Shown: in pieces, positions 1,682-13,417 of the stretch
Layout of the letters: every line of letters starts with the position of its first letter
How positions within the stretch are numbered: position 1 is the stretch's first letter
Assembly: GCA_020628865.1 (NCBI GenBank)
Contig: JAHDEJ010000002.1
Location: 136,643 to 200,642, forward strand
DNA from: Acidimicrobiales bacterium
GTDB lineage: Bacteria > Actinomycetota > Acidimicrobiia > Acidimicrobiales > SHLQ01
Direction: 5' to 3'
Length of the DNA: 64,000 bases
The notes under the pieces: model-generated
Seen by the model: only the letters and a program-made list of their open reading frames with translations
What the model was told of the DNA's origin: nothing
Database searches by the model: none
Made by a program: the position numbers and the translations under genes

Positions 1682-3718
1682 TCAGATGGTTTGGCAGAGG
1701 CGGCGTGCGTCGTGGATTGCGGCGGCGATTCCCCGGCTCGAAACCGCGTCTCCGACCCGATACAGCGCGAACCCTTCGCGACGATCCGGCTGGGGCTCCG
1801 AGGCCACGAGTGCGTCGAGGTCGACGACCCCTCCGTTCGATGACGCCTCTCGCAAGCTCAGATACGGCTCCGGGTTCGGGACGGCGCCGTGCTCGTAGAT
1901 GACGGCGTCGACCGCACGAACGATCTCCTGACGGGTGAAGACGTTGCGGAGTGTGGCGTCGAGCCCGGTCCCGTTCCGAGCGACGCGCACCAGGAGGTGA
2001 TCTGGCGTCATGGAGACGCCGTTCTTGTACAGCATCTCGAGATAGGCGGGACCCGTTGTCGCCGCCATGTCCTGGCCGACCAGCCGGTCGGGTGTCACGA
2101 GTTCGATGTGCACCCCGTCCCATCCGGCCAGGTACTCGGCCACGGACGGCGCCGGCTCGCCGCCGTGGTCGTCGTAGATCAACACGTCGCCGGACACGCT
2201 CGCATGCCCGGTCAGCACGTCCCACGTGCTGTGGACGAGCTCCTCACCGGCCGTCAGGAAGCTGGGATCGGGGAAACCTCCCGTGGCGGTCACGACGATG
2301 TCGGGTTGTTCGGCCAGTACATCGGCGGCATCGACCGCAGTGTTGAGGCGAACGTCCACCCCAAGATGTCGAAGCTCTTCTTCGAGCCATCCGATGATGC
2401 CGAGCAGCTCGGCCTGGCGTTCGCTGGCTCGCGCAGCGATGACGACCTGGCCGCCGACCCGGTCCTGTGCTTCGAAGAGCACCACGTCGTGGCCGCGCTC
2501 GGCGAGCACGCGGGCGGATTCGAGGCCAGCGGGACCGGCGCCCACGACGACCGCCTTCTTCTGCGGACCGGCCGAGGGTGGAATCAACTGCGGGATGTGT
2601 GTCTCTCGGCCGGTGGCCGGGTTCTGGATGCAGACCGACTCGAGCCCCTGATGCAGCCGGTTGATGCACAGCGAAGCGCCAACGCAGACGCGAATGCGGT
2701 CCGGTTCACCCCGCTCCAGCTTGCGGACGATGTGCGGGTCGGCGATGTGAGCCCGCGTCATGCCGGCGAGGTCGATCAGCCCTTCGCTGATGGCGTGTCG
2801 GGCTGAGCTCAGGTCGGTGATGCGGGCGGCGTGGAGGATGGGCAGGTCGACGTTCGCCTTGATGGCCGCTGCCAGGGGCACGAATGGCATGAGGGGAGTT
2901 CCCGCCGGCGGAATGGCCTTGGACAGCCCCTCCTCCGTCGCCAGCGAGGAGCTCGTCACGTTCATGAAGTCGAGCAGCCCCGACGCAGCCAACCGCAGGG
3001 CGATGTCGGCGCTCTCCTCCGGCTCGAGACCGCCGATCTGCCCTTCGTCGGCGATCAGTCGGATGCCGACGAGCAGGTCGCTTCCGATTGATTCCCGGAT
3101 CGATTGCAGAACCTCGACGGTGAACCGCAGCCGGTTCTCGATCGATCCGCCGTACTCGTCGGTTCGACGGTTGGACAGTGGCGTCCAGAACTGGTCGATG
3201 AGGTGGCTGGTCGCACAGAGCTCGATTCCGTCCAGACCTCCGGCATGGGCGCGGACGGCGGCAGCCCCGAAGTCGGCGACGACTCGCCGGATGTCGCTCT
3301 TCTCCATCTCCTTCGGCCAGCCGCGATGCATCGGTTCACGGATGGGCGAGGGCGCGATCGTCGGCAGCCAATCGCCGTCGTTGGAGACGTTGCGCCGACC
3401 CATGTGGGTGATCTGGCACATGACCGCCGCACCGTGCCGATGGATGCGCTCGGTCATCTCGGCCAGCGGATCGATGATGTCGTCCGACCCAAAGGAGAGC
3501 TGCCCCCACAGCGACGCAGAGTCGGCGGACACGTTGCTCGACCCGCCGATCATCGTCATGCCGATGCCGCCGATGGCCTTCTCCTCGTGGTACGCCATGT
3601 AGCGCTCGTTGGGGCGACCGTCGGTGTTGTAGCCCGGAGCGTGACTGCTCGAGAAGATGCGGTTCTTGAGCGTGAGGTGGCCGAGTTGGAATGGTTCGAG
3701 CAGCGGGTCGGTCGTCAT
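1682..3718 (-). CDS. NADH:flavin oxidoreductase, OYE-type TIM barrel fused to an FAD/NAD(P)-binding domain (2,4-dienoyl-CoA reductase / N-methylproline demethylase-like)
   Basis: The likely start is MTTDPLLEPFQLGHLTLKNRIFSSSHAPGY... at 3718, overlapping the upstream stop as ATGA. The OYE-like N-terminal half is followed by a dinucleotide-binding motif, VVVGAGPAGLESA. Confidence 0.85.
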   Translation of the reverse strand: MTTDPLLEPFQLGHLTLKNRIFSSSHAPGYNTDGRPNERYMAYHEEKAIGGIGMTMIGGSSNVSADSASLWGQLSFGSDDIIDPLAEMTERIHRHGAAVMCQITHMGRRNVSNDGDWLPTIAPSPIREPMHRGWPKEMEKSDIRRVVADFGAAAVRAHAGGLDGIELCATSHLIDQFWTPLSNRRTDEYGGSIENRLRFTVEVLQSIRESIGSDLLVGIRLIADEGQIGGLEPEESADIALRLAASGLLDFMNVTSSSLATEEGLSKAIPPAGTPLMPFVPLAAAIKANVDLPILHAARITDLSSARHAISEGLIDLAGMTRAHIADPHIVRKLERGEPDRIRVCVGASLCINRLHQGLESVCIQNPATGRETHIPQLIPPSAGPQKKAVVVGAGPAGLESARVLAERGHDVVLFEAQDRVGGQVVIAARASERQAELLGIIGWLEEELRHLGVDVRLNTAVDAADVLAEQPDIVVTATGGFPDPSFLTAGEELVHSTWDVLTGHASVSGDVLIYDDHGGEPAPSVAEYLAGWDGVHIELVTPDRLVGQDMAATTGPAYLEMLYKNGVSMTPDHLLVRVARNGTGLDATLRNVFTRQEIVRAVDAVIYEHGAVPNPEPYLSLREASSNGGVVDLDALVASEPQPDRREGFALYRVGDAVSSRGIAAAIHDARRLCQTI

Positions 3719-5226
3719 TGCGTCGCGTCCTTCGGGATCTCGGTCATCCGTCGGGCAACGTAGTCCAGGAGCTCTTCTTCGACCGTGTCGTCCATGGCGG
3801 GCCTCTCGTACTCGGCGAGCAGCGCATCGACCCGCTCGAAGCCGAGCGTCTCGGTGTCCTTCGACCCGGCCTCTTCCCATTGCTCGAAGCTCGTCTGGTC
3901 CATGACCGCCGGCATGTGGAATGCCGAGGTGTAGTTGGCCACGGTGTGGGCGGCTCCCAGATAGTGGCCCTGCGGGCCGACCTCACGAACGGCGTCCATC
4001 GCATCGGAGAAGTCGTCGGTTCGGACTCCCTGGGCGTAGCGGATCCAGCCTGCGGCGATGTCGCTGTCGGTTGCGTACTTGGCGAGGTTGACCGTGAGTC
4101 CGTGTTCCATCCAACCGCCGCAGTGGGTGATGAGATTGATGCCGCCGAGGATCGCGGCATGCATGTTCATGTTGGCCTCGTAGCCGGCCTGGGCATCGAG
4201 GCGTTTCGAGCCGGTGTGCATGCCGACGCTGCGCACGGGCAGTTCGTAGAACCGGGCCAACTGGCCTGCCATCAACAGCAGGTGTGCGAGATCGGGTGTG
4301 CCGGTCATGGGCGAGCCAGTTCGCATGTCGACGATCATCAGGAACATGCCGTAGATCGTCGGCGAGCCGGGGTTGATCGCCTGGGTGAACGCGCATCCGG
4401 CGAGCGCTTCGGCGTTCAGCTGTGCGATGCCGCCGAGCGAACTGGCCGGTGTGTTGGCGCCGGCGAGGGCGAACGGCGAGTAGTACACAGGCTGTCCGGC
4501 GCGGGCGTAGAGGATGGCGGCGCTGAGCATCGATTCGTCCCACACGAGCGGTGAGTTGCCGTTCATGAAGCCGGTGATGACGGCGTTGTTGTCGACGAAC
4601 TCCGCTCCGTGGACGATCTTCGCCATGTCGAGCGTGTCCTGCGCCTGCGCGGCTCCCTGGCACGAACCGATGCTGATCTTGTCGGTGTAGCGCATCGAGT
4701 CGGCGTAGTACGCGAGGTGCCGGTGTGGAATGTCGACGTCCGTTGGCTCGCAGTGGAAACCACCCCCGATGTTGATGGTGGGCAGTTGATGGCTGAGCTT
4801 GATGCACTCGATGTTGTCGGCACGTGTTGCGTACCGTCGCCCCACCTCCCGGTCGAGGAAGAACGGGCTGCCCGAATTCGGCGACATCGCCAGATGCCGG
4901 CCGCCGATCTGGACCGATTGGGCGGGGTTGCGGGCGTGCAGCGTGAACTGGGTGGGAGCCGAAGCGATGAGCTTCATCAGCAGCTCGCGGGGAATTCGCA
5001 CCCGCGTGCCGTCGATGTCGGCACCGGCGTCAGACCAGATCGAGATCGCTTCGTCGTAGCGGAACTCGATGCCGACCTCTTCGAGGATTCCCATCGAGGC
5101 GTCGTGAACCATCTCGACGGTCTCTTGCGGCAAGAGCTCGTAGAGCGGAATGTTCCGATCGAGTGAGAGCGGTGCCCGCGCGTCGACTCTGTCGTGGGCT
5201 CGGCGACGTCCTGTGCGTGACACCAT
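3715..5226 (-). CDS. Trimethylamine methyltransferase (MttB) superfamily protein, non-pyrrolysine type
   Basis: The 503-aa uninterrupted ORF resembles the MttB/MtgB family along its length (ELLPQETVEMVHDASMGILEEVGIEF...GGINLITHCGGWMEHGL...). It has no in-frame TAG. Confidence 0.85.
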   Translation of the reverse strand: MVSRTGRRRAHDRVDARAPLSLDRNIPLYELLPQETVEMVHDASMGILEEVGIEFRYDEAISIWSDAGADIDGTRVRIPRELLMKLIASAPTQFTLHARNPAQSVQIGGRHLAMSPNSGSPFFLDREVGRRYATRADNIECIKLSHQLPTINIGGGFHCEPTDVDIPHRHLAYYADSMRYTDKISIGSCQGAAQAQDTLDMAKIVHGAEFVDNNAVITGFMNGNSPLVWDESMLSAAILYARAGQPVYYSPFALAGANTPASSLGGIAQLNAEALAGCAFTQAINPGSPTIYGMFLMIVDMRTGSPMTGTPDLAHLLLMAGQLARFYELPVRSVGMHTGSKRLDAQAGYEANMNMHAAILGGINLITHCGGWMEHGLTVNLAKYATDSDIAAGWIRYAQGVRTDDFSDAMDAVREVGPQGHYLGAAHTVANYTSAFHMPAVMDQTSFEQWEEAGSKDTETLGFERVDALLAEYERPAMDDTVEEELLDYVARRMTEIPKDATQ

Positions 5227-8927: not shown

Positions 8928-10301
8928 ATGTCATCCCCTTCCAACAATGAAGTAGATGTGATCGTGATCGGGCTCGGCCCGGCGGGCGAGTCGGTGGGCG
9001 GCCAGCTGGCCGAGGCTGGTCTGCGAGTTCTGGGTATCGAGGCCAGCCTCGTCGGCGGCGAGTGCCCCTACTGGGGTTGCGTGCCCTCGAAGATGATGAT
9101 TCGGGCGGCGAACACCCTCGCTGAGGCCCGACGGGTGAACGAGATGGCTGGGTCGGCCACGGCGACGCCGGATTGGGCGCCGGTCGCCCGCCGCATTCGG
9201 GAGCAGGCGACGGACACGTGGGACGACACGGTTGCCGTCGATCGCTTCGTCGGCAAGGGCGGCATCTTCGTGCGCGGGTATGGCCGGATCGTCGGCCCGA
9301 ACACGGTCGAGGTCAATGAGGAGACGTGGACGGCGACCCGCGGCATCGTGGTGGCCACCGGCACGCTTGCGGCCGTGCCGCCGATTCCGGGACTGGCGGA
9401 CACGCCGTACTGGACGAATCACGAGATCATCGAGAATGAGGTGTTGCCCGAGTCGATGATCGTGCTCGGCGGCGGCGCGATCGGCGCGGAGCTCAGCCAG
9501 GTGATGCAGCGCTTCGGCGTGCAGGTCACGGTGATCGAGGGTGAGGAGCGGTTGCTTCCTCGCAACGAGCCCGAGGCCGGCGATGCCGTGCGCGAGGTCT
9601 TCGAGGCCGAGGGGATGACCGTGCACACCGGCCAGTTCGCCACCTCGGTCGCCCATTCGGATGCCGACGGCTTCACCGTCACGTTGCAGGACGGCACCGA
9701 GGTGCGGGGCGAGCGTTTGCTCGTGGCCACCGGCCGGCGGACCTTCCTGAAGGAGTTGGGTGTCGCGTCGATCGGCGTGGACGATTCGAAGCCGTTCCTC
9801 GATTCGGACGAGAACATGCAGGTGCAGGATGGCCTGTGGACCGTGGGCGACATCGCCGGCGAAGGCATGTTCACCCACCTCGGCCTGCGGCAGGCGAACG
9901 TGGCCGTGGCACACATCCTCGGTTCGCCGATCGACCCGCTGAACCTCGGTGCCCTGAGCGCCGTCACGTTCACCGACCCGGAGGTCGGATCGGTCGGCAT
10001 GACCGAGGCGGAGGCCCGGGCGGCCGGGATCAACGTGGCGACGGCGTTCAAGCCGGTGGCGCACACCGCTCGTGGTTGGTTGCACCAGCAGGGCAACGAG
10101 GGGTTCATCAAGCTGGTCGTCGACGCCGACCGCGATGTGCTCGTTGGGGCGACGTCTGTTGGGCCGCACGGTGGCGAGGTACTCGGGCATCTGTCGCTCG
10201 CCGTCCACGCGGCGATCCCGATCTCGACCCTGCGGTCGATGATCTACGCCTACCCGACGTTCCACATGGGCATCGAGGACACGCTGAAGGAACTCGACTG
10301 A
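8928..10301 (+). CDS. Class I pyridine nucleotide-disulfide oxidoreductase (dihydrolipoamide dehydrogenase / mycothione / mercuric reductase-like flavoprotein)
   Basis: It has the FAD motif DVIVIGLGPAG, the redox-active disulfide GGECPYWGCVPSK, and a C-terminal His-Glu dyad (YPTFHMGIED). ATG 8928 is preceded by the RBS GAGGAAG; ATG 8916 is an alternative start. Confidence 0.85.
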   Translation: MSSPSNNEVDVIVIGLGPAGESVGGQLAEAGLRVLGIEASLVGGECPYWGCVPSKMMIRAANTLAEARRVNEMAGSATATPDWAPVARRIREQATDTWDDTVAVDRFVGKGGIFVRGYGRIVGPNTVEVNEETWTATRGIVVATGTLAAVPPIPGLADTPYWTNHEIIENEVLPESMIVLGGGAIGAELSQVMQRFGVQVTVIEGEERLLPRNEPEAGDAVREVFEAEGMTVHTGQFATSVAHSDADGFTVTLQDGTEVRGERLLVATGRRTFLKELGVASIGVDDSKPFLDSDENMQVQDGLWTVGDIAGEGMFTHLGLRQANVAVAHILGSPIDPLNLGALSAVTFTDPEVGSVGMTEAEARAAGINVATAFKPVAHTARGWLHQQGNEGFIKLVVDADRDVLVGATSVGPHGGEVLGHLSLAVHAAIPISTLRSMIYAYPTFHMGIEDTLKELD

Positions 10302-10384
10302 CTGCGCTCGGCTGACGGCACTCCCCCACGGTTGCGGCCGACGTCGAGACGACGCTCGGGCCGCAGCTGTGGAAGGATCCGCAG

Positions 10385-11818
10385 ATGGAGACACTTCCCG
10401 ACGAAGGATTGGTTGCGTTCGTCAAGGAGGACTGCCCCACGTGCGTCCTCGTGGCCCCGGTGCTGGCCGAGTTGCGGGCGGCGGGTGAGGACATTGCGGT
10501 CATCACCCAGGACGACCCGGGCTTCCCGGCCGGGCTCGATGCCGTGCACGACGCCGACCTCGGCTTGTCGTGGCACAACGACATCGACACGGTGCCGACG
10601 CTGTTGCGGCGGGGCGGTGGCGCCGAGGCGGACCGCATCGTCGGATGGAGCCGGCCGGCGTGGGAGGAGTTCACGGGCGTCGACGGGCTCGGGGCGAACC
10701 TGCCGGAGCATCGGCCAGGCTGCGGCTCGCTGAGCGTCGACCCGGATCTTGCCGACACGCTCGCCGCCCGTTTCGACGGCACCGGCCTGGTGGCGCGGCG
10801 GGTCGAGTTCGCGTCGCAGGAGGACGAGTTCGAGGCGATGTTCGAGCGGGGCTGGAGCGACGGCCTCCCGCTGGTGCCGCCCACTCCGGAGCGGGTGTTG
10901 CGTATGCTCGCCGGAACCTCTCGTGCGGCCGACGACGTGGTTGCCATCGTTCCACCGGATCTGATCGAGGCCACGGTCGAGAAGGTGGCGATCAATGCGG
11001 TGATGGCCGGCTGTGCGCCCGAGTACCTGCCGGTGGTGATCGCGGCGCTCGAAGCGATCTGCACAGACGAGTTCAACATGCACGGCGTGCTGGCCACGAC
11101 GATGGGTGTTGGTCCGATCCTCATCGTGAACGGACCGATCCGCCACGAGATCGGGATGAACAGCGGCATGAACGTGCTCGGTCAGGGCAACCGGGCCAAC
11201 GCCACCATCGGCCGGGCCGTGCAGCTGTGCGTCCGAAACCTGGGTGGCGGTCGGCCGGGCGAGATCGACCGAGCCACACATGGTGGTCCGGCGAAGTTCG
11301 GCATCTGCTTCGCCGAGGACGAGGAGGGGTCACCCTGGACGTCGTTGGCCGAGTCACGCGGCTTCGATTCGTCGGCGTCCACGGTCACCGCATTCTGCGG
11401 CGAGTCGCCAAGGATCATCTTCGACCAGATGGCTCGCACACCCGAGGCGCTGCTCTCCTCGTTCGTGGCGACGCTGTTGGGCAACGTCCACCCCCGGCTC
11501 ACGGGCATGGACACCACGATCGTCGTGGCCCCAGAACACATGGCCCGCTTCCGGGATGCCGGCTGGGACCGTGCCCGCTTCCTGGAGGAACTCACCAGCC
11601 GGCTCATGGTCGACGTGGACGGCATCCTGCGCGGCGTGGACGGGATCGAGGAGGGCATTCCCCGAGGACTCGGCCTCGAAGGTGCGCAGCTGCCGAAGTT
11701 CCGCGAGATCCTCGTGGTCCACGCCGGCGGGCCCGCCGGGTTGTTCTCTTCCACCTTCGGTGGATGGGTGAGTGGTCCGATGGGTAGTGTGCCGGTCACG
11801 AAGGAGATCACACGATGA
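10385..11818 (+). CDS. Thioredoxin-fold (CPTC) domain fused to a ~350-aa domain I cannot assign to a family
   Basis: The N-terminus METLPDEGLVAFVKEDCPTCVLVAPVL...DTVPTLL is thioredoxin-like with a CxxC motif. The remainder (GWSDGLPLVPPT...AINAVMAGC...) is globular and plausibly coding. The stop overlaps the next start as ATGA. Confidence 0.7.
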   Translation: METLPDEGLVAFVKEDCPTCVLVAPVLAELRAAGEDIAVITQDDPGFPAGLDAVHDADLGLSWHNDIDTVPTLLRRGGGAEADRIVGWSRPAWEEFTGVDGLGANLPEHRPGCGSLSVDPDLADTLAARFDGTGLVARRVEFASQEDEFEAMFERGWSDGLPLVPPTPERVLRMLAGTSRAADDVVAIVPPDLIEATVEKVAINAVMAGCAPEYLPVVIAALEAICTDEFNMHGVLATTMGVGPILIVNGPIRHEIGMNSGMNVLGQGNRANATIGRAVQLCVRNLGGGRPGEIDRATHGGPAKFGICFAEDEEGSPWTSLAESRGFDSSASTVTAFCGESPRIIFDQMARTPEALLSSFVATLLGNVHPRLTGMDTTIVVAPEHMARFRDAGWDRARFLEELTSRLMVDVDGILRGVDGIEEGIPRGLGLEGAQLPKFREILVVHAGGPAGLFSSTFGGWVSGPMGSVPVTKEITR

Positions 11819-12336
11819 GCACGATGACGGTTCTGGATCCCACCGACGAGTCGGTCCCGCAGGAGCGGCCACGTGCTGCCCGGCCCGAGTCGCTGGCCGG
11901 TCTCACGATCGGCCTGCTCGACATCTCCAAACCCCGGGGCAACGTGTTCCTGAACCGGGTCGAGGAACGGTTGAACGGTCTGGACGCATCGGTCATCCGG
12001 TTCCAGAAGCCAACGTTCTCGAAGCCGGCACCGGTGGACCTTCGTCACGAGATCGCCAGCCAGTGCGATGCGGTGATCGAAGCGCTCGCCGATTGAGGTT
12101 CGTGCACGACGTGCAGTGTGCACGACATCACCAACCTCGAGCAGATGGGCCTTCCCGGCGTGTTCGTCGCCTCAGCACCGTTTGTCGATGCCGCCGAGGC
12201 GCAGGCGAACCGACTGGGGTTCGATGCCGCCCGCGTCTTCGTCGAGCATCCGATTCAGGATCGCACCGACGAGGAAATGGTGGCGATCGCCGACGAGGCG
12301 GTCGATGCGCTCATCGAACGGCTGACCGGCCCCTGA
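11815..12336 (+). CDS. UGSC-family selenoprotein (173 aa, selenocysteine at codon 94 encoded by TGA 12094-12096)
   Basis: Track ORFs 11815..12096 and 12118..12336 share one frame and are separated only by a TGA. Read-through gives ...EALAD-U-GSCTTCSVHDITNLEQMGLPGVFV.... A hairpin follows the TGA directly. Confidence 0.75.
12100..12125 (+). promoter_or_regulatory. Candidate bacterial SECIS hairpin
   Basis: TCGTGCAC (12100-12107) pairs with GTGCACGA (12118-12125). Inner pairs A12109-T12117 and C12110-G12116 close a 5-nt apical loop GTGCA. The stem begins 4 nt after the TGA. Confidence 0.45.
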
Positions 12337-12351
12337 GGCCGATGGCCGGAA

Positions 12352-13245
12352 TCAGCCGGCCTTGGCCATCCGACGTTCGAGCTTCTCTGCTCGGGCGATG
12401 AGGTTGCCGGGCATGGCGAGCACGGCCTCGCGCGCTTCGTCGGCTTCCGGGGTGAGGCCTTCGATCGACTCCAGCTTCCAGTCACGCATGACGGTGGTGA
12501 GGACCTTCTCGGCGTGGATGCGCAGGTCGTACACCTGGGCGCGGGCGGCGTAGGCGGCGCGCTTGCGGAAGTTCGGCACGACGGTGCCGGGCATGTTGAA
12601 GTTCTCGTAGACCTTCTTCATGGACAGCACGCACGCCGACGGGTCGTGCTGCATCATCGCCGACACGATGCCCTTGTAGAAGATGAAGTGGTAGTTCTCG
12701 TCGGCCGCCACACGCTTCATGATCTCGTAGGCGACTTCGTCGTCGGCCTTCACACCGGTGTTGCGGTGCGAAACGCGCGTGGCGAGCTCCTGGGCCGAGG
12801 TGTAGACGAAGATGTCGATCGGGTCGGTCCACGGGCTGTCCCAGCCTCGAGTCACGGTCTGCATGCGGGCGTCTTCGAGGGCGACGGGGTCGCAGTTGCG
12901 GCTGGTCATCAGGTAGTCGCGGATGACGATGGCGTGTTGGCCCTCTTCGGCGGTCCAGCGCCGGGTCCATCGGGAGATGGCCGAGTCTTCACCAAAGCCG
13001 CTGGCGATGGCGTAGTGGTAGTAGGGCAGGTTGTCTTCGGTCAGCAGGTTCAGGACGAGTGCTTCGCGCACCTCGGGGCTGATCGTGCACTGCGACTCGT
13101 CCCACGGCTCGTCGTTGTAGTTGCGGCCGATCTCCCATTGCACGAGGTCGTGGGCGTACCAGGTGGGCCGCTTGGCGATGTGGTCCGCCATGAGCGCTTC
13201 GATGTCGCCGTCGATGGCGGCCATGAGGTCGTGTCGCTCAGTCAT
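12352..13245 (-). CDS. Acyl-ACP desaturase (soluble di-iron, DesA-like)
   Basis: The translation MTERHDLMAAIDGDIEALMADHIAKRP...LLTEDNLPYYH...WTAEEGQHAIVIRDYL...AADENYHFIFY carries the EExxH di-iron motifs. The start at 13245 is preceded by a GGAG RBS. Confidence 0.85.
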   Translation of the reverse strand: MTERHDLMAAIDGDIEALMADHIAKRPTWYAHDLVQWEIGRNYNDEPWDESQCTISPEVREALVLNLLTEDNLPYYHYAIASGFGEDSAISRWTRRWTAEEGQHAIVIRDYLMTSRNCDPVALEDARMQTVTRGWDSPWTDPIDIFVYTSAQELATRVSHRNTGVKADDEVAYEIMKRVAADENYHFIFYKGIVSAMMQHDPSACVLSMKKVYENFNMPGTVVPNFRKRAAYAARAQVYDLRIHAEKVLTTVMRDWKLESIEGLTPEADEAREAVLAMPGNLIARAEKLERRMAKAG

Positions 13246-13417
13246 GCAGGTGTCTCCGAAAGGGGCGGCGATGCGGCTGAATCTATCGTACGGTGCCCGA
13301 CTCGGCGCCAATTGGTGTGTGCCGACTGTCGGCGCTGCCAGATCGGCGATGCGCCGATCGGACAATTCGAGGTCCGATGTCCGGCATCGCGCCCATCATG
13401 CGGTACCGTCGTCGAGC

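Follow-up and report, generated by a model that had tools for sequence, protein, structure and literature searches.

A near-obligate gene pair of a UGSC-family selenoprotein and a thioredoxin-fused partner of apparently new fold in an Acidimicrobiales bacterium

In the 64,000-nucleotide stretch of DNA analysed in this study (the window), a gene for a thioredoxin-fused protein (G2) and a gene for a selenoprotein of the UGSC family (G3) form a tightly coupled functional pair, and the unit consists of two genes, not three. The large domain of G2, here called X, and UGSC make up a widespread two-protein selenium-dependent redox module, while the upstream flavoprotein gene (G1) is only a neighbour in one lineage. 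We suspect, with a probability of roughly 0.55, that G2 and G3 together are a thiol-driven two-subunit selenoenzyme reductase. New in this study are the near-obligate pairing of UGSC and X, their three subfamilies of gene order and motif, the thioredoxin fusion of the partner and a weak link to GrdB/PrdB. The three genes lie where a previous sequence-only reading of this DNA had placed them, and all that it stated at the level of the sequence holds. The features are:

8928 to 10301, plus strand: G1, class I FAD/NAD(P)H pyridine-nucleotide disulfide oxidoreductase, 457 aa (Pfam, translation)
9063 to 9080, plus strand: redox-active disulfide motif CPYWGC (CxxxxC) of G1, within GGECPYWGC (translation)
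10385 to 11818, plus strand: G2, 477 aa, thioredoxin domain, flexible linker and X domain (translation, AlphaFold2)
10385 to 10699, plus strand: thioredoxin-fold domain of G2, residues ~1-105 (PDB profile search, Foldseek, invariant residues)
10721 to 10723, plus strand: Cys113 of G2, in the linker motif RPGCGS (invariant column C113 in alignment A1 of thioredoxin-fused forms)
10787 to 11815, plus strand: X domain of G2, unannotated, enzyme-like, residues ~135-477 (~345 aa), conserved partner of UGSC (AlphaFold2, alignments A2 and A5)
11012 to 11014, plus strand: Cys210 of G2, in the motif NAVMAGC (invariant in the X alignments)
11815 to 12336, plus strand: G3, UGSC-family selenoprotein, 173 aa including Sec94 (NCBIfam NF041046, Pfam PF24696)
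12094 to 12096, plus strand: UGA selenocysteine codon, the U of D-U-G-S-C-T-T-C (translation, orthologue conservation)
12108 to 12126, plus strand: bacterial SECIS-type hairpin, 8-bp stem with a GUG apical loop, after an 11-nt spacer from the UGA (covariation)

The stop codon of G2 and the start codon of G3 overlap as ATGA (11815-11818), with an AAGGAG Shine-Dalgarno sequence 9 nt upstream, and this arrangement is common elsewhere, since the overlap of 4 nt is found in 34 of 71 loci and the distance is at most 30 nt in 60 of the 71. Across several phyla, 76 of 80 species loci have UGSC next to the homologue of G2, and three of the four remaining loci are cut by a contig end, which bears out the tight coupling that had been read from the overlap. 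Where X is encoded by a stand-alone gene (~350 aa), UGSC is its neighbour, before or after it, in 60 of 80 distant metagenome loci (in 56 within 300 bp); some stand-alone X genes have UGSC 2-3 kb downstream, with mobile or restriction-modification genes inserted between. Natural single-chain UGSC-X fusions also exist, in the Cys form (P0264 and P0270) and as proteins truncated at the Sec codon (P0169, P0351, P0368 and P0229). Gene order matches the motif class of UGSC exactly (UGSC-then-X with W in 17 cases, X-then-UGSC with C in 24 or G in 19), which indicates co-evolution of the two proteins. Since UGSC is absent nearby in 11 of the 80 stand-alone X loci, all with adequate flanks, and tandem X-X proteins are present, X may also work without UGSC.

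Clustering of the ORFs from 80 + 82 loci gave no recurrent, conserved third gene, be it for a reductase, a transporter or an enzyme of a pathway. Clusters near the pair, namely a flavin reductase (18 loci), a MutY-like protein (20), oligopeptidase B (16), SufB (14) and an SDR (9), were judged to be lineage synteny. A functional link to the upstream MttB and FMN-oxidoreductase genes was dropped, as neither recurs near the pair in related loci. Most X/UGSC members have no thioredoxin domain and no reductase gene nearby, and their electron donor is assumed.

The sequence-only reading had proposed a dedicated three-part relay encoded in one operon, in which electrons pass from NAD(P)H to the G1 flavoprotein, then to the thioredoxin domain of G2 and finally to the selenoprotein G3. 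This is the best-surviving alternative, and we find it unlikely. The three genes are co-directional with minus-strand genes on both sides, the gap between G1 and G2 is 83 nt with no terminator-like site, and the trio recurs in the clade of the window (L001, L085 and L087); in both match lists, moreover, at least nine pairs of G1 and G2 homologues have equal lengths of their longest contig, which suggests that they sit on shared contigs. However, G1 adjoins G2-G3 only in that clade, and within 6 kb of the pair it is missing from 79 of 80 species loci and from all 80 distant loci, so the relay failed the synteny test. In L086 two genes are inserted between G1 and G2, an SBP gene in opposite orientation and an EAL gene, and orthologues of G1 with 72-73% identity occur in unrelated surroundings. 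The clade of the window keeps the entire neighbourhood (clpX-clpP-tig ... desaturase-PRK), therefore inherited synteny explains the adjacency of G1. The promoter scan of the locus found no sigma-70-like site, terminator-like matches inside G2 are at chance level, and the sequencing runs holding the region are DNA only, from algae-associated and marine metagenomes, with no RNA run among them.

G1 belongs to a subgroup of the 'dihydrolipoyl dehydrogenase family' with a conserved GGECPYWGC, which is invariant across 17 orthologues (alignment A6, with C50 and C55 both invariant). Like the class I flavoprotein disulfide reductases (LpdA, the MerA core, mycothione/glutathione reductase), it has two Rossmann domains and a dimerisation domain (Pfam Pyr_redox_2 with 159.5 bits, Pyr_redox, and Pyr_redox_dim with 90.3 bits), the CxxxxC redox disulfide, and the C-terminal His...Glu, here in YPTFHxGIED, of which HxGIED is conserved together with CPYWGC. 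Unlike the named reductases, it carries the unusual CPYWGC motif, is genomically independent of X/UGSC outside one clade, and scores below every NCBIfam equivalog cut-off (LpdA, MerA, Mtr, Gor, RclA and others), the top scores being 288 for MerA (cut-off 454) and 286 for LpdA (cut-off 409), with the rest lower. An assignment as MerA was rejected, as G1 lacks the C-terminal Cys pair of MerA and its score is under the cut-off; the NmerA domain is missing as well. High-Mr thioredoxin reductases reach their protein substrates via an extra C-terminal redox centre; G1 has no such centre (GCUG, GCCG or a CxxxxC tail), its C-terminus ...YPTFHMGIEDTLKELD being without Cys or Sec, and the TGR model gives 78.5 against a cut-off of 476. 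This lack also speaks against the relay.

Neither Pfam nor NCBIfam has a model that matched the full G2, and among its homologues (more than 8000 clusters) a Pfam domain is found in none. The N-terminal domain of G2 nevertheless has a thioredoxin fold. Thioredoxins are matched in the PDB profile search (best E 1.4e-4) and by Foldseek (probability 1.00, TM 0.6-0.65), and Foldseek of the full G2 model against the PDB gave thioredoxin matches only, while the Pfam Thioredoxin model is reached weakly (E 0.022, by 4 of 47 diverse members). The domain shows the beta-alpha-beta fold with the CxxC at the N-terminus of helix 1 (CPTC at 10433-10444, with the modelled helix 18-32 directly after it) and the cis-Pro loop TVPT (residues 69-72); CPTC and TVPT are invariant in the alignment of thioredoxin-fused forms, and C17, C20 and P71 are invariant in alignment A1. 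The full AlphaFold2 model has a pLDDT of 80, with values below 50 in the linker segments 116-127 and 138-161. Cys113 borders this low-confidence linker (pLDDT is below 50 from residue 116 on), and it is a candidate shuttle cysteine.

Some thioredoxin-dependent reductases carry a fused thioredoxin domain, an example being the fused MsrA/B-Trx proteins. G2 resembles them in that a CxxC thioredoxin domain is fused to an enzyme that it presumably recycles, which implies a thiol/selenol-disulfide cascade. It differs from them in that its presumed catalytic domain is of an unplaced fold and family, and the redox Sec is on a separate, translationally coupled subunit.

This domain, X, has 5857 representative clusters of homologues at E<=1e-3 and could not be placed in any family, as had been stated from the sequence. 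There was no Pfam or NCBIfam family match (G2 and 47 diverse members, E<=10 and E<=1) and no match to PDB sequence profiles, and Foldseek of the X-only model (pLDDT 91.2, pTM 0.91) against the PDB returned nothing below E 1e-2, with a best probability of 0.38. The top matches, class I fumarase, Toblerone-fold amidohydrolases and RidA, all had a probability <=0.38 and were treated as non-matches. Judging by the predicted structure, X apparently has a new fold. Alignments A2 and A5 contain the conserved motifs GWxDGLPxxPPT, NAVMAGC, GxGxRANxTIGRA and PEH and many invariant polar residues and glycines. A confidently folded domain with so many invariants of this kind is what would be expected of an enzyme, and X may have a catalytic role.

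By its sequence, G3 is a member of the UGSC family, with 154 bits for NCBIfam NF041046 (cut-off 125) and 150 bits for Pfam PF24696 (cut-off 25, residues 5-171 of 173); it shares the D-U-G-S-C motif, the TGA-coded Sec and the SECIS hairpin and differs from the family in nothing at family level. The selenoprotein is therefore not undescribed, although the sequence-only reading had put it in a candidate undescribed system, since UGSC, named 'UGSC-containing protein' by Zhang and Gladyshev, has been in their selenoproteome surveys since 2007-2008 (PMC1976440, PMC2398784) and has models in both databases. In ocean and freshwater metagenomes its abundance places it among the top five selenoprotein families (PMC2398784), and that survey records it as abundant in aquatic metagenomes and already fused to an 'Unknown_1' domain, which is very probably X. 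In a 2026 review UGSC is still uncharacterised (PMC13188914), and the PDB holds no solved UGSC relatives.

The in-frame TGA of G3 is a genuine selenocysteine codon. Of 76 loci with tblastn alignments across this codon, 75 have TGA and one has TAG, and in 80 more distant loci TGA is present in 62 of 62 copies with a stop there, beside one Cys form. Cys thus takes the place of Sec in 1 of 63 sequences here, and in the earlier survey Sec and Cys forms numbered 255 and 21 (PMC2398784); that Cys almost never replaces Sec points to an essential catalytic selenol. The conserved hairpin has 95% of cells paired, and one of its pairs is GC in 47, GU in 8 and AU in 5 sequences with 0 mispairs. The copy in the window has one A.A mismatch in the stem, and its own minimum-free-energy fold is a slightly shifted register of the same palindromic hairpin sequence. 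With the TGA conserved far beyond chance and the hairpin 11 nt downstream, the claim that G3 is a real selenoprotein is confirmed. The UxxCxxC label given to it needs to be narrowed: the window has UGSCTTC, but this spacing is specific to one of three subfamilies, the other two having W or G in place of the third Cys, and D-U-G-S-C alone is universal (the UGSC motif is conserved in ~138 orthologues).

A likeness to glycine and proline reductases had also been proposed, and it holds in part, since 16 of 19 UGSC proteins weakly match the GrdB/GrdF models around Sec (best E 8.5e-6), with scores below the family cut-offs. G3 reaches 16.7 bits for TIGR01917 (cut-off 602) and 11.6 for TIGR01918 (cut-off 65.45), and does not match PF07355. 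Residues 80-134 of UGSC align to model positions 333-385, so that Sec94 falls near position 347, and the Sec of GrdB lies at about residue 350. The similarity to selenoprotein B (GrdB, GrdF, GrdH, PrdB) is consistent over ~55 residues centred on Sec, and the UxxCxxC spacing of the subfamily in the window is of the GrdB type, while family-wide only the PrdB-type UxxC is universal. Both systems combine a small Sec subunit and a larger partner, presumably with thioredoxin as reductant. In contrast, UGSC covers only the C-terminal third of GrdB, and the host context of X/UGSC is aerobic.

It could be hypothesized from this that X and UGSC are a true Grd/Prd-type enzyme for reductive cleavage of C-N (or C-X) bonds, in which UGSC would be a minimal protein B and X would activate the substrate in the role of GrdE/PrdA, perhaps with an electrophilic cofactor that it generates itself. 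The strong preference for Sec over Cys and the invariant Cys in X would agree with this, together with the Sec-region similarity and the spacing in the window. Nevertheless, we regard it as quite improbable, because X is unrelated to GrdE/PrdA, and neither G2 nor the 47 X-domain proteins match any Grd/Prd model. Neither in sequence nor in fold does X resemble any Grd/Prd component or any PDB entry. In addition, the third Cys is not conserved family-wide, protein B scores are far under the cut-offs, and no GrdE/PrdA, GrdA, GrdC, GrdD or PrdC genes were found on the flanks of the pair in the window or at 160 related loci.

Similarly poor prospects are given to the idea that the pair is not a metabolic reductase but serves redox defence or repair (peroxidase- or Msr-like), or carries sulfur or selenium, with X as scaffold or target. 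UGSC was grouped with thiol-oxidoreductase-like selenoproteins and a Trx-like fold was suggested (PMC2398784), the neighbours are of a housekeeping kind (tig, clpP, clpX, mutY-like, sufB), and no conserved substrate-specific transporter or pathway genes are nearby. However, X is large, highly conserved and enzyme-like, its Arg/Asn/Asp/Glu invariants would suit a small polar ligand, and the known peroxidase or Msr folds, expected from Foldseek or Pfam in such a case, were not found. Finally, although gene callers in public records split G3 into 11815-12096 and 12118-12336, it is next to impossible that the TGA is a true stop between two unrelated small ORFs, as protein similarity runs unbroken across the conserved TGA in the ~138 orthologues, the SECIS hairpin follows it, both halves are covered by the family model and full-length Cys-containing homologues exist.

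For the thiol-driven selenoenzyme reductase that we favour, the following mechanism can be proposed. G2 and G3 would be co-produced by translational coupling, most likely as one two-subunit selenoenzyme, in which X may be the large substrate-binding or catalytic subunit, with the invariant Cys210 of NAVMAGC and the Arg/Asn-rich GxGxRANxTIGR motif, and UGSC the small redox subunit whose selenocysteine performs the chemistry. On turnover, a selenenylsulfide would form between Sec and the Cys three positions after it, and in the lineage of the window the fused CPTC thioredoxin domain, standing in for free thioredoxin, would reduce it again. A cellular disulfide reductase would then recharge the thioredoxin domain from NAD(P)H, a role that G1, itself no member of the conserved system, may have taken on in the clade of the window. 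Overall, this would amount to a thiol-driven reduction, in aerobic bacteria of aquatic and soil habitats, of a substrate that is probably a small molecule.

In its furthest form, which we advance tentatively and consider unlikely, the pair of X and UGSC would stand for a new class of selenoenzymes with two subunits, widespread in aerobic bacteria. X would provide a fold and an active site that are both new, perhaps with a cofactor that is novel or self-generated, for a thioredoxin-driven, Grd/Prd-like reductive cleavage of an unrecognised abundant metabolite. If this is true, an orphan selenoprotein family that is among the most abundant in aquatic metagenomes would gain a function. With an almost constant unannotated partner, the thioredoxin built into it in Acidimicrobiia-type bacteria and a protein B-like Sec region, the orphan UGSC becomes a defined, testable two-protein system, and its reductant is also predicted. 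The system further offers a reason why aerobic Actinomycetota, Myxococcota, Chloroflexota and Alphaproteobacteria of freshwater, the sea and soil retain selenium.

The three plus-strand open reading frames that the sequence-only reading had placed in this part of the window are present as it had them, and they are listed here with a hairpin that lies inside the third.

Main features of the locus (window positions)
8928-10301, plus strand: G1, class I pyridine-nucleotide disulfide oxidoreductase (Pyr_redox_2, Pyr_redox and Pyr_redox_dim domains)
10385-11818, plus strand: G2, fusion of a thioredoxin (Trx) domain to an unannotated domain, X; 477 aa, no Pfam or NCBIfam model matched
11815-12336, plus strand: G3, 18-kDa UGSC selenoprotein; in-frame TGA at 12094-12096 in D-U-G-S-C-T-T-C
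12108-12126, plus strand: hairpin after the UGA; 8-bp stem, GUG loop, start 11 nt past the UGA

The G2 stop and the G3 start overlap as ATGA, with an AAGGAG Shine-Dalgarno sequence ahead of G3, and the three genes are flanked by minus-strand genes (upstream tRNA-Gly, tig, clpP, clpX and MttB; downstream an acyl-ACP desaturase). Between the G3 stop (12336) and the convergent desaturase stop (12352) there is a gap of 15 nt (12337-12351), and GC-rich inverted repeats, GATGGCC...GGCCATC, lie across this junction, which may be a bidirectional terminator shared by both genes. The desaturase gene (FA_desaturase_2, 12352-13365, minus strand) also carries on its antisense strand a match to ASdes, a mycobacterial sRNA family of Rfam (12878-12945, plus strand; 48.6 bits, gathering score 40), which suggests that either an antisense RNA or a coding motif has been conserved in an Acidimicrobiia-type genome.

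G3 is a real selenoprotein. It scores 154 bits against the NCBIfam model NF041046, "UGSC family (seleno)protein" (cut-off 125), and exceeds the cut-off of Pfam PF24696 as well. The U codon is TGA in 75 of the 76 orthologues adjoining G2 homologues and in 62/62 copies of a more distant set, which holds one Cys form besides. Synonymous sites are conserved over the 33 nt 3' of the UGA, and across 60 sequences the hairpin pairing is kept in 95% of cells, one pair being GC in 47, GU in 8 and AU in 5, with no mispair. The single TAG (L041, the isolate genome of Candidatus Blastococcus massiliensis AP3, NZ_HG931175.1) reads GAT-TAG-GGC against GAT-TGA-GGC in all other orthologues, and the SECIS sequence 3' of it is intact; either an inversion in the assembly or base calling, or loss of gene activity, could explain this.

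The redox system had been put forward as a candidate undescribed one, yet its selenoprotein is not new: the "UGSC-containing protein" has been listed in surveys since 2007-2008 as a selenoprotein without known function, and GOS samples have it among their most abundant selenoproteins (255 Sec versus 21 Cys forms) (PMC1976440, PMC2398784). In these surveys some UGSC sequences carry a fused unknown domain, "Unknown_1" (PMC1976440, PMC2398784). Hyphomonas neptunium is one carrier of UGSC (PMC1976440). A 2026 review still lists UGSC as uncharacterised (PMC13188914), and no functional study of it was found in the literature.

X and UGSC together make up what is conserved, and the pair is a genuine, coupled selenium redox module. 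UGSC lies directly downstream of the G2 homologue in 76 of 80 GTDB species loci (Acidimicrobiia and other Actinomycetota, Myxococcota, Alphaproteobacteria, Chloroflexota, Acidobacteriota and others), and three of the four remaining loci are contig ends. The two genes overlap by 4 nt in 34/71 loci and are at most 30 nt apart in 60/71. Of 80 distant metagenome loci selected for stand-alone X, 60 have an adjacent UGSC, on either side, and 56 have it within 300 bp. Gene order splits perfectly by the residue three positions past the UGSC Cys: it is W in 17/17 loci of the order UGSC-then-X, and also in the Cys-form single-chain fusions P0264 and P0270, while the order X-then-UGSC has C in 24 and G in 19. 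Trx-fused X is confined to the C class, and most X proteins of this class have no Trx domain; the fusion is thus a derived feature.

No third gene family recurring around the pair was found in the species or metagenome loci. Of the loci L001-L080, 18 of Acidimicrobiia type have a flavin-reductase-like cluster on the opposite strand some 1 kb upstream, and a Flavin_Reduct (PF01613) gene stands just upstream of X on a Tectomicrobia contig (L084, 4836-5534); this is the sole recurring redox-related neighbour, at a frequency too low to call it a partner. In one Chloroflexota and one Tectomicrobia genome (L081-L084) the X and UGSC genes are split by inserted mobile DNA, a transposase in one case and, in the other, a BglII-type restriction-modification system.

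The N-terminal ~105 residues of G2 are a thioredoxin domain, with invariant CPTC and TVPT cis-Pro loop, thioredoxin matches in the PDB profile search and a Foldseek probability of 1.0. An invariant Cys113 (RPGCGS) stands directly ahead of a low-confidence linker (pLDDT below 50 from residue 116), and X follows at residues ~135-477. X had been described as a large domain that could not be placed in a family, and this was borne out: it has no match in Pfam, NCBIfam or PDB sequences and no credible PDB structural neighbour (best Foldseek probability 0.38). Modelled alone it reaches pLDDT 91 and pTM 0.91, and with over 8000 clusters at 90% identity and 5857 representatives at E<=1e-3 it is a very widespread domain. 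Its invariants include one Cys (Cys210, NAVMAGC) and the motifs GWxDGLPxxPPT and GxGxRANxTIGRA, a pattern that looks enzyme-like.

X also occurs as stand-alone proteins of ~350 aa, as tandem X-X proteins of ~713 aa (P0183 by sequence; P0149, P0172, P0180 and P0198 by length and match pattern) and fused C-terminal to a UGSC domain (CGSCTSW in P0264 and P0270). In further UGSC-X fusions, gene callers end the protein at the Sec codon. The "Unknown_1" fusion of 2008 is very probably this UGSC-X fusion. Some loci hold two adjacent X paralogues (L091, L106, L113, L132), and at L091 the pair is flanked by one UGSC gene per side; tandem proteins and paired paralogues hint at a dimer or pseudo-dimer as the working form of X.

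G1 stands outside this unit. The proposed three-gene relay fails on synteny, as a G1-like gene is present no more than 6 kb from the pair in 1/80 species and 0/80 distant loci. It adjoins the pair in the window's own clade (L001, L085, L087), where the entire clpX-clpP-tig ... desaturase-PRK neighbourhood has been preserved; in L086, G1 and G2 are separated by an SBP gene of opposite orientation and an EAL gene, and G1 orthologues of 72-73% identity sit in unrelated contexts. G1 has GGECPYWGC and a C-terminal YPTFHxGIED, and falls below the cut-off of every specific NCBIfam equivalog (MerA, LpdA, mycothione and glutathione reductases, RclA). Large thioredoxin reductases act on protein substrates through an extra C-terminal redox centre; the G1 sequence has none. 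G1 may have been recruited as the local NAD(P)H entry point, with low probability.

The upstream MttB-family methyltransferase (within 1682-5226, minus strand; 503 aa, full-length PF06253 match) has no in-frame stop, which makes it an apparent non-pyrrolysine member of its family. It adjoins a 732-aa Oxidored_FMN plus Pyr_redox protein of the trimethylamine-dehydrogenase/dienoyl-CoA-reductase type; their longest ORFs share 166 nt, and the start codon of one of them is therefore probably more internal. Neither gene recurs beside the X/UGSC pair in related loci.

The suggested likeness to glycine and proline reductases (Grd/Prd) holds in part. Around the Sec, UGSC weakly but reproducibly resembles GrdB, GrdF, GrdH and the PrdB family, with 16/19 members matching these models (best E 8.5e-6; UGSC residues 80-134 aligned to model positions 333-385). 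Strict membership fails, because scores stay below family cut-offs, X is unrelated to GrdE/PrdA, no GrdA, GrdC or GrdD genes accompany X/UGSC, and the third Cys of the motif is limited to one UGSC subfamily.

The strong preference for Sec over Cys, the near-obligate large partner, the fused Trx and the absence of further conserved genes all point in the same direction. On the best reading of these sequences, X and UGSC would form a thiol-driven selenoenzyme of two subunits. Substrate binding would fall to X. The selenol of UGSC would react with the substrate and finish as a Sec-Cys selenenylsulfide, and thioredoxin, here built into G2, would recycle this selenenylsulfide.

Overall, the three reading frames and a coupled selenium redox pair stand, but the relay is not conserved and the selenoprotein family was catalogued already. 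Beyond that known family, the X partner family, which has no annotation and no known fold, is newly defined here. Also new are the near-obligate pairing of X with UGSC, the co-evolution of the two, and the fusion of X to Trx, which points to the reductant.
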